Position numbers and translations under genes: made by a program. Of a DNA stretch of 64,000 nucleotides, positions 1 to 35,612 are shown piece by piece (position 1 is the first letter of the stretch; each line of letters opens with the position of its first letter). This stretch comes from a virus. Its lineage: Duplodnaviria; Caudoviricetes. The stretch is from positions 32,001 through 96,000 of IMG/VR virus record IMGVR_UViG_2936984999_000001. The stretch is one strand, 5' to 3'. Under the pieces are notes generated by a model. That model worked only from the letters and a program-made list of their open reading frames with translations. It searched no databases and had not been told where the DNA came from.

Positions 1-54
1 TGACATAATAAACAAAATCTCCCTTCTGAAAAATGAGAATTATTTTTTGGCATT

Positions 55-85
55 AAAAAAGAGCCTATCTAATTGATAGACTCTT
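55..85 (-). terminator. Intrinsic terminator downstream of the toxin-antitoxin operon
   Basis: Minus strand AAGAGTCTATC-AATTA-GATAGGCTCTT hairpin followed by a T run. Confidence 0.7.
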
Positions 86-178
86 GTGTGTGCTGATAAA
101 ACTAATACCGAACTTTCACTTATTTTATTCTCTCCCTTACTTCATTTTGAGAATATTCGCTTTGTTGAGGTTTTATTA

Positions 179-861: not shown

Positions 862-890
862 ATTATAACTTAAAAGTATATTCTTGTCAA
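862..890 (-). promoter_or_regulatory. Consensus sigmaA promoter of the TA operon with overlapping imperfect palindrome
   Basis: Minus strand TTGACA-17 nt-TATAAT (perfect consensus); ATAACTT-AA-AAGTATAT imperfect inverted repeat across the spacer and -10. Confidence 0.85.
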
Positions 891-922
891 TAAAAAATTG
901 TGATTTCCCTTATGGAAATCAA

Positions 923-1080
923 AGCCCACAAGCGGAATCGAACCGCTATCTATCCGTACACACTAAGGGAGAGGCATCTATAAGCTCAGGGGTTAAGCTA
1001 CGTATTTTTGCGCAGTTTTGGGGTATGCGTGATTAACTGTGTGGTGTGCGGATTATACTTTGCCTTTGTACTATGTGGGC
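923..1080 (-). ncRNA. tRNA-shaped RNA with ~90-nt region replacing the anticodon loop
   Basis: Acceptor GCCCACA/TGTGGGC, D arm GTAC..GTAT, stem ATCCG/CGGAT, T arm AGCGG-TTCGATT-CCGCT; no 7-nt anticodon loop. Confidence 0.7.
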
Positions 1081-1097: not shown

Positions 1098-1131
1098 AAA
1101 AAAAGGACCCAGTGAATTAACACTGAGTCCT
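1098..1131 (-). terminator. Intrinsic terminator
   Basis: Minus strand AGGACTCAGTG-loop-CACTGGGTCCT followed by a T run. Confidence 0.75.
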
Positions 1132-2746: not shown

Positions 2747-3481
2747 ATTAACCTCTTCTTTCTCCCACATGTGGGTACAAAAATAGTTTATTGTTTCGTG
2801 TTATGCACACTACCAAAGGGTAAACTTGTTTCGTTCACCCTTTGAACTATGTATAACTTTTGTATATAACCAGATAAGTCCTTACGTGACTGGCAGACAT
2901 TACTCTGCACAAAAAGGATAGGTTTTACCCTATTCCCACAACTTTATATACTGTATTGCTACTAGCTGATGTTAAATGCTAGTTGTTATTTTTTTCTATT
3001 CACTCTTTCGAGTGATGGGCTTCAATCGGAATCTTTATCGCCCACTGCCTAGAATATAGACTGGACTCCAATTTTATCCAAAGAGACTAACTAAACTCTT
3101 GTCATGTACACTGGTATGCACACCTCACCACAAAGTACGACTGAATGGCTTAACTACTTCAAGGTGTAGTCTTATACCCTTTATTCAATTTGTACACCAG
3201 CAAAATTTTATAAAAATCTGGTGGCACTCCAATGTTTTGTAGTTCACACGTTTTGGTGTACTGTCTAGGACAGCTTGACTACTTGTGTGCAAAACACTTT
3301 TGTGTTTTATTTTTCTAGGGATTTATACTTGCCAGAAGTCCTTTGAAATGCTACAATAGATATTGTCAAGGTATCTATTGAGGACTTCCAGATTAAAACC
3401 CTATTCTATGTAGTTGTTGAAAATCTGGAAATTTCTCACCTCTTTCTCATACCGTTATTGATATGTTTTGTTGATAGTTGC

Positions 3482-3510
3482 ATATTACCATATCGTTATT
3501 GATATGTCAA
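3482..3510 (-). promoter_or_regulatory. Leftward sigmaA promoter
   Basis: Minus strand TTGACA-17 nt-TAATAT with TGn extension; CGTTATTGATATG occurs twice (~3453 and ~3494). Confidence 0.6.
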
Positions 3511-3600
3511 TACTTTTTTAAAACTTTTTTGCAATCTCGATTTTGACCGCCCCACATGGGCTTTGAAGTCGTTGTTGCTGTATCTCAATTGCTTGACGCA

Positions 3601-3690
3601 AGTATAACACTTTGTACAAAGTATTTTCAAGTCGGAATATTGTACAAAGTGTAGCTTGCTTTTCTGTTCACTTTGTACAAAGTGTATAAT
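3601..3690. promoter_or_regulatory. Triple palindromic operator array (ACTTTGTACAAAGT) overlapping promoter elements
   Basis: Palindromes at 3609-3622, 3640-3651 (partial) and 3669-3684 (16 bp perfect); minus strand TTGAAA-18-TATACT at 3601-3630; plus strand TATAAT at 3685. Confidence 0.65.
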
Positions 3691-3855
3691 TGCATACTTT
3701 TTAATTCGCCTTTATTAGAAGGAATATTTCAAAAATACAGAAGTAAAAACCATGGAAAGTATTGATTTTACTAGCGTTGTGGGCTGTCGTATGGTATAAT
3801 TCTTGTAGAATTACTTCTATATAATGCAAAAAAATGAAAGTAGGTTGATATATAA

Positions 3856-4065
3856 ATGTCAGATAATAATGAAAATAAATTCAATAAAGTAAAATATGAT
3901 AATGATTATATAAAAAATAACTATGACCAGGTACGCTTTACAGTCAAAAAAGGTAAAAAAGAAGAATTGAAAATACATTGTAGCAAGTTTGGTTATAAAA
4001 GTCTGAATGATTTTATAAATCAAGCTGTAAATGAGAAAATAGCTAGGGATTTAGGTGAAATATAA
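3856..4065 (+). CDS. Small Arc/ribbon-helix-helix-like DNA-binding protein
   Basis: YDQVRFTVKKGKKEELK...SLNDFINQAVNEKI fits the strand-helix-helix pattern; RBS and TG-TATAAT upstream. Confidence 0.65.
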   Translation: MSDNNENKFNKVKYDNDYIKNNYDQVRFTVKKGKKEELKIHCSKFGYKSLNDFINQAVNEKIARDLGEI

Positions 4066-5505
4066 ATACAATTTAGTGTATTATGGCTATTGTGCGTGTA
4101 ATTGTATAATTGTTTGAAAACATCCGTGTGGGAAATACATTTTGTAAGCAGTGAGTTGAGCTGCGGTATAGGCATATTGCACAAAAGCGTTGATTTTAGT
4201 GGGGTTGTGGGCTGTGATATGGTGTGGATTGCATGGTGAAAGTGTCTTTTTGAGGGTAATTTTTAGGGAATCGGGGGAAAGACATTGTGCAAAGTGCATA
4301 AAATGGTGTACAGGAATACTATGTCATGTAGTTTTGAAAACTATATAAGGTAGTTTAGTATTCCATATGTGATAGTTTATGGTATACATGATGTACTATA
4401 GTGTACTAGTTAAATTGTTTTGAAAATGATATAACATAGTTTTCGATACTGTATTATATGGTATTACTGCAATGTCTGGTAAAAAATTTCATTTTATCCA
4501 TAGCCATTAAACCCTTGTAAATACTGGATTTCTACGACTTTTTACCCTATTTTTTTGAAAAATTCCTACTATATACCAGTTTAAAGCCCTTGCCAGACAA
4601 CGCCAGAATGTCTTGTATAGTAATTTCTATATTTTCTATCATAGAAGTATAAAAGCATGTCTACTAATATCTATTAGAAGTCATAGAAAATAAGGGATGG
4701 GGGTACTTTCCATCCTGGAGCAGATCCAGGATCGGCTCAGCAGCATAAGCAGGTCAATCTCCACACTGACTGGAAAATGCATCTATCCCAATAAATCCCT
4801 ATAATCCGCACCACTACATTACTCTCTCATCGTATCGACCACCGTATCGTAAAATCCCAGTTTTTTCCTATCATCTTTCACTCCCACTCCACAAAAATCA
4901 CACCAAAAATCACACAAAAATCACACACCAATCTCGCTCAACTCAAATAAATTCAAGCCATCAATCGATACCGTTCAACCATCCAAGTTCCTCCACAACC
5001 ATCGCTCCCCACTCACCACACCAAAATCTCAATGTTTTCCTGGCATAACTAGCAATTTTTCACTATTACAAAAACACTCATTCGATAAAATCCAAATAAA
5101 TCCCTACTCAAATCCCATTTTACTCATCACATCAATCGCATTCTTTCCTATATAAATACTGTTATCTCTCGGTATCAAAAAAACACAACTTAATTCACAC
5201 AATTTAACTAAAAAATTTAAAAGCAGCCATCCAATCCGGATATGCTGCTTTATTTTTTTAACTCAACACTCACTCAAATCCCAGTATTTTTAACACATCT
5301 ATAATCTACACCTACATTATATCAAAATTCCACCCTAAAAATCGACCAAACACCTCTACCCTACCAATTTACCATCAACTACTATCTCGTCAAAATTTAC
5401 CATCAAAAACTCATCTAAAGTACCGTAATGGGGGTATGTTTTAATCTCAGCTGCACTCACTACCCAGATCACCATCCAGGTCTAATATATAGCTATATTT
5501 TTTTT

Positions 5506-5571
5506 AATCTAATTCAAATCTAATTCAAATCTAATTCAAATCTAATTCAAATCTAATTCAAATTTAACTCG
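5506..5571. repeat. 11-bp tandem repeat AATCTAATTCA x5 plus one degenerate copy
   Basis: Perfect units start at 5506, 5517, 5528, 5539 and 5550. Confidence 0.95.
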
Positions 5572-5758
5572 AATTTACATTAAACTAATACACTTCTCAT
5601 TTTGTATCAAATTTAATTCCTAAGAATAAAATGAAAATCCATTTAGAAGTCTATATTGATCCATCTATCTCACTTTCACTATCACTATTTTTAGATTAAA
5701 TACAAATCTAAACAAGAAGAAAATAACACAGCATATATCAGTTAAGGAGAATTTAAAT

Positions 5759-6106
5759 ATGAATAATAACGAAATTCAGAGATACGTATCTATCTTACTT
5801 GGCAAAGAAAATGTTGAAACAATATCAGATCTACAACTTTTGTTTAATCGCTATGACGTACATATCTCCAGACGTTTTGACGCAGTAGAAAATGGCGAAC
5901 CTATGCTTTACCGTAGAGAAGATCTTACACAATGGGCAAAAGAAGCATTTGAACGTGGTGAAAAATATTTTTATTGCAACCCAGTTGATGAGAAAAATCC
6001 TTATGGACCATTAGTTCTTTGTAAACCAGAATACAAATATAGGTTACTTCGTGCACTAACTGAAGAAGAATACAATAACGTTTTTTCAGAATATAAAGAA
6101 AAATAA
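5759..6106 (+). CDS. Hypothetical protein
   Basis: ORF with AAGGAG RBS; first gene of the long rightward block. Confidence 0.7.
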   Translation: MNNNEIQRYVSILLGKENVETISDLQLLFNRYDVHISRRFDAVENGEPMLYRREDLTQWAKEAFERGEKYFYCNPVDEKNPYGPLVLCKPEYKYRLLRALTEEEYNNVFSEYKEK

Positions 6107-19773: not shown

Positions 19774-19864
19774 GGCAGGTATAGCTTAATTGGTAAAGCG
19801 TCATATTCAAATTCTGGAAAACATACAAATGAAGACTCCAGGTTCGAGTCCTGGTACACTGCCC
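19774..19864 (+). ncRNA. tRNA-like RNA with enlarged (~24 nt) anticodon loop
   Basis: TAGCTTAATTGGTAAAGC D arm, CCAGG-TTCGAGT-CCTGG T arm, bulged acceptor GGCAG-GTA/TAC-A-CTGCC, TCAT/ATGA stem. Confidence 0.65.
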
Positions 19865-20690: not shown

Positions 20691-20763
20691 GATGTGTATA
20701 CCTACTAATGTAGATATAAGTATTAGTTTATCACAGATTTGTTGTTATTGTAAATGAGTTTTT

Positions 20764-20839
20764 ATCTACTTGGTCTAACTGGTTATGACGGACGGACATT
20801 TTGTGCCATCAGATACAGGTTCAAAGCCTGTAGTAGATA
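20764..20839 (+). ncRNA. tRNA-like RNA / pseudo-tRNA with aberrant anticodon arm
   Basis: ATCTACT/AGTAGAT acceptor, GTC..GAC D stem, ACAGG-TTCAAAG-CCTGT T arm, 10-nt anticodon loop with a mismatched stem. Confidence 0.6.
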
Positions 20840-20842
20840 TTT

Positions 20843-29875: not shown

Positions 29876-31069
29876 ATGGGTATTACATTAACTAATGAAG
29901 AATTTCAAGAAAAGTTTTATAATAAATTTGATAAAAACGAGTATACACTAATTTCTCAATATACTGGTGGATCTAATTTTATAAGAATTAGACACAAATG
30001 CGGATATGAATTTGAGAAAAAGCCTAAAAATATAATTACACCAAGAGAACATCTTAATTGTCCAAAATGTTTTGGAAAATTATATACTAAGGTAATTCCT
30101 GGAATAAATGATATGGCAACAACAAATCCAGAACTAATACCATTACTAAAAAATCCAGATGATGCTTATAAGTATAAAACTAATACAAATAAGAAAATAT
30201 ATTTTATATGCCCTGTTTGTGGTAATGAAATATATAAAACAGGAAACGAAGTATATATGCATGGATTGCAATGCAAGTATTGTAGTGATGGATTTAGTTA
30301 CGCCGAAAAATTCATGAAGTCTATATTAAGCCAACTTGGAATTAACTATATACATCAATATAATCCTGATTGGGCACAACCATATAGATATGATTTTTAT
30401 TTTAAATTAGATGGTAAAAAATATATTATCGAAATGGATGGTGGAATTGGACATGGGAATTTTACTCGTGATGGCAAACAAGACGTTATTGGAAAACAAA
30501 TTGACGACAAGAAAGATACACTGGCAAAATTACATAATATAAATGTAGTTCGAGTTGATTGCAATTATATTGATATAGAAAATAGATATAATTATATAAA
30601 AGAACATATTTTAATTTCTGAAGTGGCTCAAATCTTAGATTTATCAAAAATAAACTTTTCTTTATGCCGTATCGTTGCAGAAAAATCAATATTTATTTCA
30701 GTTTGTGATTTAGTTAAACAAGGAATGCGAAGTTTTGTAGAAATAGCTGAGAAGCTTGAAATATCAAATACCACTGTAAGTAGATATTTAAAAACTGCTT
30801 GTGAATCTGGATATCTTGATATAGATTATAACGATCTCAAACAACAATCCCTTGATATTGGATATCAAAAGAACAAACAACGAAACGAGAATCGTCCAAA
30901 TGGATTTAATCGTACTCCTGTTAAATGTATTGAAACAGGTGAAATATTTAATTCTATGGATGCGGCGGATAAAAAATATGGCGGATGTGTAAGTAGTTAT
31001 TTATCTGGATGTATAAAATATACTGGTCATTTAGATGACGGAACAGTTCTTCATTGGGAACGAATTTAA
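29876..31069 (+). CDS. Free-standing homing-endonuclease-like protein, paralog of 20959-22674
   Basis: Zinc ribbons, YDFYF..IIEMDGGIGHG..DDKKD, HTH and a NUMOD1-like VKCIETGEIFNS. Confidence 0.75.
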   Translation: MGITLTNEEFQEKFYNKFDKNEYTLISQYTGGSNFIRIRHKCGYEFEKKPKNIITPREHLNCPKCFGKLYTKVIPGINDMATTNPELIPLLKNPDDAYKYKTNTNKKIYFICPVCGNEIYKTGNEVYMHGLQCKYCSDGFSYAEKFMKSILSQLGINYIHQYNPDWAQPYRYDFYFKLDGKKYIIEMDGGIGHGNFTRDGKQDVIGKQIDDKKDTLAKLHNINVVRVDCNYIDIENRYNYIKEHILISEVAQILDLSKINFSLCRIVAEKSIFISVCDLVKQGMRSFVEIAEKLEISNTTVSRYLKTACESGYLDIDYNDLKQQSLDIGYQKNKQRNENRPNGFNRTPVKCIETGEIFNSMDAADKKYGGCVSSYLSGCIKYTGHLDDGTVLHWERI

Positions 31070-32887: not shown

Positions 32888-33550
32888 ATGAAAGTTTTTG
32901 AGCTTGCAAAAGAAATTGGTGTACCAAGTTCAGATGTTGTAGCGCTATTAAAGGAAAATGAAGTTCCTGTAAAAAATCATATGACTCCACTTTCTGATGA
33001 AGCAATTGAAATGGTAAGAGCCAATTATATTACGGTTCCGGACGAACCTGAAAAAGTAGAGGTAAAAGAACCTAAAAAAGTAGTAAAAACAGACGCAGAT
33101 TACAGACCAGAGGAAATGATTCCATGTAGGTCACTTTTTGCCGGTGTACTCTTGTTTACAGGTGATCATACACATATGACATATGCGTTTAATGGTGCTG
33201 GTGACAGACGAAATATTGAGTATCAGGATTTAAAAGCTGCAATGCTTCAACACAAAGGTTCTATATTCGATCCAGATATTATTATTGAGGATGAAAATCT
33301 TATTAATGACGAGCACTGGTTTGAAGTAAAGGAAGTTTATGAAAATATGTTTAACGAAAAAGATATTGAGAAAGTAATGAACCTTCCATATCGTGATTTT
33401 GAAAAAGCATTTATTCAGCTTCCAATTACAGCCAAAAAAAGAATTATTACTACTTACGCTACACAGATGGAAAACGGTACATTTGAACAGTGGAACAAAG
33501 CGAAAATCATTGACAAAGTTTGTGGTACTCGTTTTGATCTGAAAATGTAA
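32888..33550 (+). CDS. Virion-module protein with IF2 N-terminal-like domain
   Basis: MKVFELAKEIGVPSSDVVALLKENEVPVKNHMTPLSDEAIEMV matches the IF2_N pattern; ATG at 32888 after AAAGGA. Confidence 0.7.
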   Translation: MKVFELAKEIGVPSSDVVALLKENEVPVKNHMTPLSDEAIEMVRANYITVPDEPEKVEVKEPKKVVKTDADYRPEEMIPCRSLFAGVLLFTGDHTHMTYAFNGAGDRRNIEYQDLKAAMLQHKGSIFDPDIIIEDENLINDEHWFEVKEVYENMFNEKDIEKVMNLPYRDFEKAFIQLPITAKKRIITTYATQMENGTFEQWNKAKIIDKVCGTRFDLKM

Positions 33551-34359: not shown

Positions 34360-34933
34360 ATGCCTACCTTTAGAGAGATGCAACAACTATATGCGAATAT
34401 TGGAACGGTTGGTCAACAGATTAAAAAACAATCTGATGATGCTATGGAAGCGACATGGGATAATTCTATCGCATCAAGGGTTTGTTACATCTATGATTAT
34501 TATCATGATGACTCTCCTACTTTGAATAGAAATATTACCTATGGACCATACACAACCAAAACTCGTATTGATGCAAAATTTATTGTCAAATCTTATAGCT
34601 CACTGGATAAAGACCAGATTGAGTATTATCTACAATTTAAACCAAGTCAGAAGACACAATTCGAACCAACTGATGAACTCTATTATTTTGAAACAGATTA
34701 CAGACGAAAATACGGATCAGACGATTTTGTAGGAATGTATTGTGATGTAGCTGATGATCAAGGTATTTATCATAGATGGCTTATCTGTACAAAAGAAATA
34801 GGCAATCAGTTTGTCAAATATAATATTCTTCCATGTGATTATTGGTTTCATTTTATTGTAAAGAAAAACGGTAAACGGTATAAACGGAAAATTTGGGGAG
34901 TGACGAGGACACAATCCTCGTACAACAGCGGAT
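34360..34933 (+). CDS. Head-closure/neck-like protein, exon 1
   Basis: Coding to ...TQSSYNSG + T; followed by a group I 5' splice site. Confidence 0.7.
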
Positions 34934-35284
34934 CTGTTACATGGTCCTTCCCATTAGAAATAAGGGGAAATCTATCCTTTGAATTGCTGGAAATTCCTAA
35001 AGACAATTAAACTACAACGCAAGTATGAAATATAACTAACCGTGAATGTGGCGAAAGCAGAAAAAATTAATTGTATGAGAACGAGGTTAAAACCCCTGTT
35101 CTCTTTTTTAATGGAAAATCAGCAGCGAAGCCTCGAATAGAGGAACGTTCAACGACTAAGCTACCTAAGTAGGTACTGTGGAGGACATCCGAAAGGATGA
35201 AGATATAGTCTGAACTTCTTTCGAAAGAAAGAGAAAACCGAAAGGTCTTATTTGAATTAACGAATCAAATAAGTAACGCATTTG
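34934..35284 (+). mobile_element. Group I intron (351 nt, no ORF)
   Basis: P1 GGAU/GUCC with U.G pair; P GAATTGCTGGAA, Q AATCAGCAGC, R GTTCAACGACTA, S AAGATATAGTCT; ends in G. Confidence 0.88.
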
Positions 35285-35295
35285 TATGGACTGAT
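35285..35295 (+). CDS. Micro-exon (~11 nt; 3' boundary uncertain by up to 4 nt)
   Basis: T+TATGGACTGAT restores the frame G-L-W-T-D joined to Y-Y-S-T of exon 3. Confidence 0.65.
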
Positions 35296-35612
35296 AAGTA
35301 ATTGTCCACTGCATTTGGAAACTGTGCAGTGAATTTCTTCTAATTGCTGGAAACTCTTTAGAAATTTGTAAACTACAACGCAAGCATGAAAAATGGCTAA
35401 TCGTGAATGTTAAAAATTACAAATATTAGATAATCAGCAGCCAAGACTCGAATAGAGTAAGGTTCATCGACTATTATGTAGGACAAGTGTCCGAAATGGA
35501 GAACACCTAAACCACAAGGCATGGTGAAGATATAGTCAGCACTTCATATGAGAATATGAGAAAAGCATTCGTGCTCTTTTGCAGCTTAACGAACTGTAAA
35601 AGTAACATAAGG
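35296..35612 (+). mobile_element. Group I intron (~317 nt, no ORF)
   Basis: P TAATTGCTGGAA, Q AATCAGCAGCC, R GTTCATCGACTA, S AAGATATAGTCAG; P10 AGTAAT/ATTACT; ends in G. Confidence 0.85.

Follow-up and report, generated by a model that had tools for sequence, protein, structure and literature searches.

We report that the minus strand of the window, i.e. the whole stretch of 64,000 nt that was analysed, carries a 158-nt gene with the acceptor stem, D arm and T arm of a tRNA, in which the anticodon loop is replaced by a larger folded module, referred to below as the cargo or insert (Table 1). The window belongs to an IMG/VR virus record of 122.8 kb, whose completeness is estimated at 55%, and one conserved protein suggests that the phage is a distant relative of the SPbeta-like phages of Bacillota. 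The gene belongs to a leftward transcription unit and shares its strand with its neighbours. Downstream of its terminator and the following promoter lie genes for a Gp49/HigB-like toxin and an HTH antitoxin, which agrees with the original prediction, where the element was placed just upstream of a toxin-antitoxin promoter.

The same prediction had described a tRNA frame with a payload instead of the anticodon loop, and its parts are all present: the 7-bp acceptor stem, the D arm with G18G19, the T arm with a TTCRANY loop, the stem at the anticodon position and the 92-nt insert. The variable loop has 4 nt. What is missing is the 7-nt anticodon loop with U33 on a 5-bp stem that marks a canonical decoding tRNA (RF00005). 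The gene ends with the discriminator T at 923 and encodes no CCA, and the tRNA-Tyr gene of the same phage likewise lacks an encoded CCA.

Table 1. Features of the tRNA-shaped gene and its surroundings (positions are those of the window)
Feature	Position	Strand	Remarks
Terminator of the upstream 71-aa HTH gene	1104..1131	(-)	23 nt ahead of the element
Whole tRNA-Thr-derived, tRNA-like RNA gene, 158 nt	923..1080	(-)	G1 is 1080 and the discriminator U is 923; the edges are the conservation edges among 31 loci
Acceptor stem, 5' strand GCCCACA	1074..1080	(-)	7/7 pairs with 924-930; same as in bacterial tRNA-Thr(GGU)
D arm, stem GTAC/GTAT, loop AAAGGCAAA containing GG	1055..1071	(-)	98.9% of stem cells paired
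Anticodon stem, 5' strand ATCCG	1049..1053	(-)	ATCC invariant; equals the CATCC/GGATG stem of bacterial tRNA-Thr(GGU)
Cargo in place of the anticodon loop, 92 nt, C/A-rich, G-poor, three-way junction	957..1048	(-)	Equal architecture in the folds of all variants
Extension helix, 5' strand ACAC, (AC)n repeat	1044..1047	(-)	Partner is GTGT 958-961; repeat number differs between near-identical phages
Hairpin A (CAGTT...AACTG), C-rich loop ...CATACCCCAAA	1013..1039	(-)	Predicted fold; ACCCC unpaired with p 0.76-1.0
Hairpin B (AGCTTA-ACCCC-TGAGCT), loop AACCCCU	983..999	(-)	AGCTTAACCCCTGAG identical in 23/23 variants; loop and inner stem invariant
Single-stranded tract CCUCUCCCUU, complement of the Shine-Dalgarno-like AAGGGAGAGG	965..974	(-)	Invariant; predicted unpaired with p 0.71-0.99
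Extension helix, 3' strand GTGT, (GU)n repeat	958..961	(-)	Length determines the ARAGORN anticodon (GTG, AGT or TAG)
Anticodon stem, 3' strand CGGAT	952..956	(-)	GGAT in 22/23 variants; absent from L010/L019
T arm AGCGG-TTCGATT-CCGCT	931..947	(-)	98.2% of cells paired; A49-U65 is G-C in L020
Acceptor stem, 3' strand TGTGGGC	924..930	(-)	Partner of 1080-1074
Intrinsic terminator TGATTTCC-ATAA-GGGAAATCA and T run	901..921	(-)	Directly 3' of the element; retained at most homologous loci
Consensus sigma-A-type promoter TTGACA-17-TATAAT, 12/12	862..890	(-)	Serves the downstream Gp49/HTH toxin-antitoxin; a neighbour, outside the RNA

Detection of the gene and its relatives

With default settings ARAGORN did not report the element in the window and neither did the Rfam tRNA model. 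When introns were allowed, ARAGORN, one of the programs that had been proposed for a check, recognised the tRNA frame and called a 'tRNA-His(gtg)' with an 85-nt intron; the same mode gave a call in all 23 distinct sequences of the family described below, and none when the 64-kb window was shuffled 20 times with dinucleotides preserved. Given the intron-mode call and its absence from the shuffles, we regard the earlier structural description as correct and the pattern as not arising by chance. Rfam searches of the locus, at gathering thresholds and at E ≤ 10, were negative for tRNA, intron, tmRNA, Y RNA and sRNA families except for a 17-nt T-loop piece that matched a tmRNA model.

Exact-pattern scans yielded 31 loci with 23 distinct sequences: the window itself, 10 additional contigs from IMG/VR and 20 from metagenomes, several of the latter labelled human gut. 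Contig size reaches 222 kb, and one complete relative (IMGVR_UViG_3300045988_166581; 221,842 bp) has a single copy of the element, at 151361-151536, and no ordinary tRNA-Thr. The insert, with a length of approximately 85 to 115 nt across the family, is present in every copy together with the frame, and IMG/VR provided no insert-free allele. As to the expectation that homologues combine a constant scaffold with a variable insert, the first half stands, the frame being constant; the insert, by contrast, has an invariant core and only its 5' part was replaced, in L020. This locus is the most divergent copy and retains hairpin B and the CU tract.

Other searches gave little more. A T-arm/acceptor pattern found neither an insert-free allele nor a normal tRNA-Thr in IMG/VR, a 5'-half pattern gave no matches in the same database, and blastn against 50,697 phage records gave no match. 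Relatives of the cargo were not detected in 400 sampled Clostridia genomes, where four weak matches were at chance level, and we found no paper on this tRNA-shaped element in the literature. A looser cargo pattern returned 56 new loci, all without a tRNA frame, which were discarded as chance matches, as were L003 and L011.

The only addition from the T-arm/acceptor pattern was L049 (IMGVR_UViG_2854617766_000003, approximately 1038-1062), an isolated 25-nt tRNA-Thr 3' fragment, GTAGCGGTTCGATTCCGCTTGTGGGCA, in an unrelated viral contig. It has a gene immediately before and a terminator after it, the usual signature of an attachment site in a tRNA-Thr gene.

Variable neighbourhood of the gene

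Similarity between the loci starts at G1 and stops at the discriminator, and both flanks are swapped: upstream we distinguished three different sets of neighbour genes, and downstream at least four. The toxin-antitoxin pair is often but not always among them, and a fixed link to it was rejected since other genes lie downstream in L002, L010, L013 and L015. In L013 and L015 a pair of genes of 111 and 106 aa, 170-830 nt downstream, replaces the Gp49/HTH pair, and this replacement suggests that the site behind the element is a slot where small cassettes of two genes are exchanged.

At most other loci a 72-aa ORF ends 15 nt ahead of G1 without an intervening terminator, and therefore co-transcription followed by processing is suggested there. 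The window is different in having a strong terminator 23 nt upstream, as do some relatives, and no promoter was found at the scan threshold between this terminator and the element in the window and in some relatives. Both results count against the explanation that we favour below.

Descent of the frame from tRNA-Thr(GGU)

To trace the frame we used a 21-nt pattern consisting of the T arm and the 3' strand of the acceptor stem, which was scanned on one genome for each of 185,579 species. Sixteen genomes matched and the match was a tRNA-Thr(GGT) gene in 16/16; many of these genes also have GCCCACATAG at the 5' end and the ATCC/GGAT stem, both of which are outside the pattern. The acceptor stem, the T arm, the discriminator U and the ATCC/GGAT stem are identical to those of bacterial tRNA-Thr(GGU). 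Because all pattern matches are of one kind and features outside the pattern are shared as well, the sequence comparison shows the frame to be a descendant of bacterial tRNA-Thr(GGU), with a diverged D arm and a replaced anticodon loop. Moreover, an invariant UUAGUGU beside the 3' strand of the stem has 4/7 bases in common with the ancestral loop UUGGUAA, G35 and U36 among them, and may be a vestige of it.

Architecture of the cargo

Unconstrained folds gave the cloverleaf frame and the same three-way junction in every variant. From the 5' side the cargo consists of a CA-rich single strand, hairpin A, an A-rich linker, hairpin B and a single-stranded GCCUCUCCCUUA that leads into the (GU)n strand. 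The loop of hairpin A has 11-17 nt with ACCCC inside, and in the long variants a 7-bp ACGCAGT/ACTGCGT stem carries the loop AAACCCCTCAA. The insert contains CCTCTCCCTT at 974-965, and GCCTCTCCCTTAGTGT is identical in 23/23 variants. The cargo presents three C-rich patches, i.e. the two ACCCC loops and CCUCUCCCUU, which are invariant and predicted to be unpaired (p 0.7-1.0).

Conservation within the gene is highest in the 3' half of the insert, and the insert also exceeds the D arm in this respect. As hairpin B and the CU tract are kept in L020 despite the replaced 5' half, they look like the working core. A coding reading of the plus strand was dropped, there being no start codon behind AAGGGAGAGG and the indels between variants not being multiples of three.

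Evidence for selection on the fold

Pair counts were made on an alignment of 22 sequences for the acceptor, D, anticodon and T helices and for hairpins A and B. In total 93.7% of the stem cells are paired, as against 23-43% when the partners were slid, and the acceptor stem reaches 99.4% over the 22 variants. Substitutions in stems are mostly pair-preserving, most of them keeping a wobble pair, and compensatory changes were seen at four pairs, one in the T stem (A-U to G-C) and three in hairpin B, whose outer stem covaries (GC/GU/AU and CG/UG/UA). The D loop differs in length and sequence between variants and GG is kept in every one. Departures from pairing are an A:C mismatch in the T stem of L005 and L020, an A:G mismatch in the acceptor stem of L015, and the lost GGAT strand (Table 1).

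The covariation score on the same 22-sequence alignment is 0.077 compared to 0.070 in shuffles, a weak signal because the family is shallow, and the free-energy z-score for the window copy is only -1.68. The support for the fold is thus mostly conservation together with the resemblance to genuine tRNA-Thr.

These data bear on whether there is an RNA function at all. The element could be a decayed tRNA-Thr gene with an insertion, kept as a DNA linker for module recombination or left over as an attachment site: it sits exactly at the junction of exchanged flanking modules, tRNA 3' fragments are common as attachment sites in phages (the 25-nt tRNA-Thr fragment in L049 is one such case), and in a young family conservation alone proves little. 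We consider this improbable, given the pair-preserving and compensatory changes in the stems, the survival of GG through D-loop indels and a cargo core that is invariant where other parts vary. An attachment site would furthermore not need the 5' half, and no integrated form was found at the tRNA-Thr genes of 16 representative genomes.

Intron or cargo

Among the tRNA genes of the Lak megaphages of the gut, including one putative tRNA-Thr, there are highly conserved 'enigmatic' introns of no known class in the anticodon region; alleles occur with and without the insert, and a definite point of excision has been deduced (Devoto et al. 2019, PMC6784885). An insert of 85-105 nt that excises itself, or is cut out by an enzyme of the phage or the host so that a functional tRNA is left, would have a precedent here. 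ARAGORN's intron-mode call in 23/23 variants, nine of which come out as tRNA-Thr(AGT) and so match the Thr frame, is what such a gene would give, as are the bases shared between UUAGUGU and the ancestral loop; the lack of an ordinary tRNA-Thr in the complete 221.8-kb relative would also fit.

However, the anticodon assigned by ARAGORN is GTG in 10, AGT in 9 and TAG in 4 variants, and it flips because the length of (AC)n/(GU)n varies. Through this slippage the bases next to the stem differ even in near-identical phages, and any fixed 3' splice site leaves loops of 6-12 nt with shifting anticodons, i.e. removal of the insert does not restore a constant 7-nt loop and anticodon. U33 does not follow the 5' strand in any variant. 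Nor is the insert a group I intron, as had been stated in the original prediction: such introns have a P3-P9 core of approximately 200 nt or more at a fixed site in the anticodon loop, the insert has only 85-115 nt, and RF00028 had no match in 800-1250 at E ≤ 10, whereas two group I introns were found at 34926-35560 in the same window. Compared to the Lak introns, the family has neither an insert-free allele nor a fixed excision point with a constant anticodon loop, and both the phage lineage and the host (Prevotella in the case of Lak) are different. Slippage, the missing U33, the lack of an Rfam intron or ribozyme family and of an insert-free allele, and the conserved 3' half of an insert that is more conserved than the D arm together make a spliced decoding tRNA unlikely; we see little chance for it, and the element is, judging from its sequence, almost certainly unable to decode.

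A proposed stable RNA matured by host tRNA enzymes

Our preferred explanation is that the gene encodes a non-decoding, tRNA-shaped stable RNA of approximately 150-180 nt, derived from tRNA-Thr(GGU), which is cut out and stabilised by the tRNA enzymes of the host; we assign it a probability of roughly 0.6. The RNA would be made as the last element of the leftward transcription unit, in most relatives by co-transcription with the 72-aa ORF that ends 15 nt upstream. RNase P, RNase Z and the CCA-adding enzyme act on a 12-bp acceptor/T stack whose elbow is intact, and in Bacillota genes that lack CCA and continue with U are typically handled by RNase Z. Host RNase P would cleave at G1 and, as no CCA is encoded, RNase Z would cleave after the discriminator U; CCA would be added after cleavage, and the tRNA fold would shield the RNA. 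The proposal in the original prediction that tRNA processing stabilises an sRNA would be in keeping with this scheme.

With respect to function, the three exposed C-rich patches might pair with Shine-Dalgarno-like sequences in mRNAs, an idea that we put forward tentatively on the basis of analogy. In RsaE/RoxS-type sRNAs of Bacillota exposed CCCC/UCCC loops bind Shine-Dalgarno regions. Pairing of the patches with G-rich, Shine-Dalgarno-like sites in host or phage mRNAs would result in less translation. The element shares with RsaE/RoxS several C-rich motifs (CCCC/UCCC) exposed in loops or single strands; it differs in having a tRNA frame rather than a terminator hairpin of its own and in having no Rfam match at E ≤ 10. 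With no family match and no phage target above chance, it does not belong to RsaE/RoxS, the exposed C-rich motifs being the one feature in common.

The target search that had been suggested for the insert was carried out on the 122.8-kb phage record and came out negative: the longest complementarity is 11-12 nt, which is the chance expectation, and an 11-mer complement at genome position 31738 is inside a coding region. The CU tract has a perfect complement of 10 nt, TAAGGGAGAG, at approximately 130-139 of the window, where the toxin-antitoxin operon has its 3' untranslated end, and this match is likewise within chance. Of the eight AGGGAGA (AAGGGAGA-type) ribosome binding sites of the genome that precede an ORF, six are located in the 10 kb downstream, in the leftward arm (window 24-137; C1 22716-32137, minus strand). 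An AGGGAGA regulon in this arm was considered and dropped, as 6/8 is not significant against 19/41 GGAGG sites there.

Extending the preferred explanation, the element could be a natural tRNA-framed riboregulator, in which the tRNA body provides host maturation, precise ends and stability, and the patches form an anti-Shine-Dalgarno-like surface that acts on a set of ribosome binding sites or mimics the 16S 3' tail, so as to reprogramme translation early. This full version is speculative and we hold it to be rather doubtful; if true, the phage tRNA-like stable RNAs, for which no explanation has been available since T4 and T5, would obtain their first function.

Alternatively, the tRNA shape itself could serve as a decoy for a protein or enzyme, i.e. 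a factor that recognises the acceptor end or the elbow, e.g. a tRNA-targeting defence system or toxin, or hairpin B with the CU-rich tail could mimic the 16S 3' end (helix 45 and the anti-Shine-Dalgarno tail). The elbow and acceptor stem are intact, the element adjoins a slot with toxin-antitoxin pairs at most loci, and the order of a hairpin and then a pyrimidine tail (..UGCGGUAGCCUCUCCCUUA) may resemble the layout of h45 and its tail in 16S rRNA. This resemblance is short and possibly due to chance, and there is no constantly linked partner protein, the neighbours varying on both sides; searches of the upstream neighbours against Pfam gave no family apart from one weak sub-threshold match, and against PHROGs only the HTH gene was above threshold. 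We therefore judge a decoy or mimic to be unlikely. For anticodon nucleases in particular, which the original prediction had offered as an alternative target, a decoy is unlikely since there is no anticodon loop to be cut.

Comparison with other tRNA-shaped RNAs

Phage tRNA-shaped stable RNAs have been annotated for decades without a known function, in T5 and also in T4, whose species 1 and 2 stable RNAs are further examples of this layout. For RNA1 and RNA2 of T5 (GenBank AY543070, misc_RNA 30501-30644 and 32959-33083) the annotation reads 'tRNA-like stable RNA with unknown functions'. Their folds are those of RNAs of approximately 125-145 nt with acceptor, D and T arms and an enlarged folded arm at the anticodon position, as found here, and in ARAGORN's intron mode RNA1 is called as a tRNA-Leu with a 40-nt 'intron'. 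The features of the T5 layout, i.e. a phage-encoded RNA with acceptor, D and T arms and no anticodon loop, are all seen in our element. The T5 record (AY543070 30284-33083, L107) also lists RNAI, RNAIII, RNAIV and RNA2H, a further four stable RNAs annotated with unknown function, which lie amid tRNA genes.

Since T5 RNA1 and RNA2 are earlier natural examples, the notion of an unprecedented natural scaffold does not hold: the design is already known, and the element is a further variant among the phage tRNA-like stable RNAs. The likeness is one of layout and not of homology, as blastn revealed no sequence relation. Specifically, the frame is tRNA-Thr in the element and tRNA-Leu in T5, and the cargo is larger (85-115 nt) than that of the T5 RNAs and has three C-rich single-stranded patches. 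The element is a solitary gene of an early operon, next to a toxin-antitoxin slot, whereas the T5 RNAs lie inside a tRNA cluster, and its host group, that of a gut Bacillota-type phage, is unlike that of T5. What distinguishes it within this class is a named tRNA-Thr ancestry, variation that argues against decoding, a site outside the tRNA cluster and a cargo that points to a concrete test.

In the engineered tRNA scaffold (Ponchon and Dardel; used in PMC3753655) a cargo RNA replaces the anticodon stem-loop, and the tRNA body confers processing and stability. This scaffold is man-made; the element is natural and conserved, and its processing is inferred. Should both processing and pairing hold, phages would share the tRNA-scaffold trick invented by RNA engineers, and the class would gain a testable function.

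tmRNA (SsrA) also has a tRNA-like body with a large module in the place of the anticodon arm, and a miniature tmRNA-like molecule, with a chargeable tRNA-like domain and an internal coding or tag segment, would have the topology seen here. The element retains G1-C72, C2-G71 and U73, all of them identity elements that ThrRS uses at the acceptor end. Nevertheless, we find this reading highly implausible: G3:U70 is absent (3:70 is C:G), the D stem is complete where tmRNA has a stemless D-loop, no pseudoknots are predicted, and there is no tag reading frame, since every frame of the cargo contains stops and the lengths of its indels are not divisible by three. The element is also far smaller, and the ARAGORN tmRNA search (-m) and the Rfam tmRNA models were negative except for the T-loop match mentioned above. 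A bacterial Y RNA (YrlA) was rejected as well, because in YrlA the two ends form the Ro-binding stem and the tRNA-like module is at the closed end, whereas the ends of the element form an acceptor stem, the opposite topology, and there is no Rfam match.

Other observations in the window

Two further elements are located in the tRNA cluster on the plus strand. The first, at 19774-19864, is tRNA-shaped with an oversized anticodon-arm loop of approximately 24 nt and scores 38.6 bits against the Rfam tRNA model; its counterpart in the complete relative (G005 130685-130762) scores 38.2 bits, and the Rfam cut-off is reached in both. The second, at 20763-20840, is called by ARAGORN in intron mode as a tRNA-Gln with a 3-nt 'intron'. 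Finally, a region of approximately 3 kb (2770-5759) is nearly devoid of ORFs of ≥50 aa on both strands.
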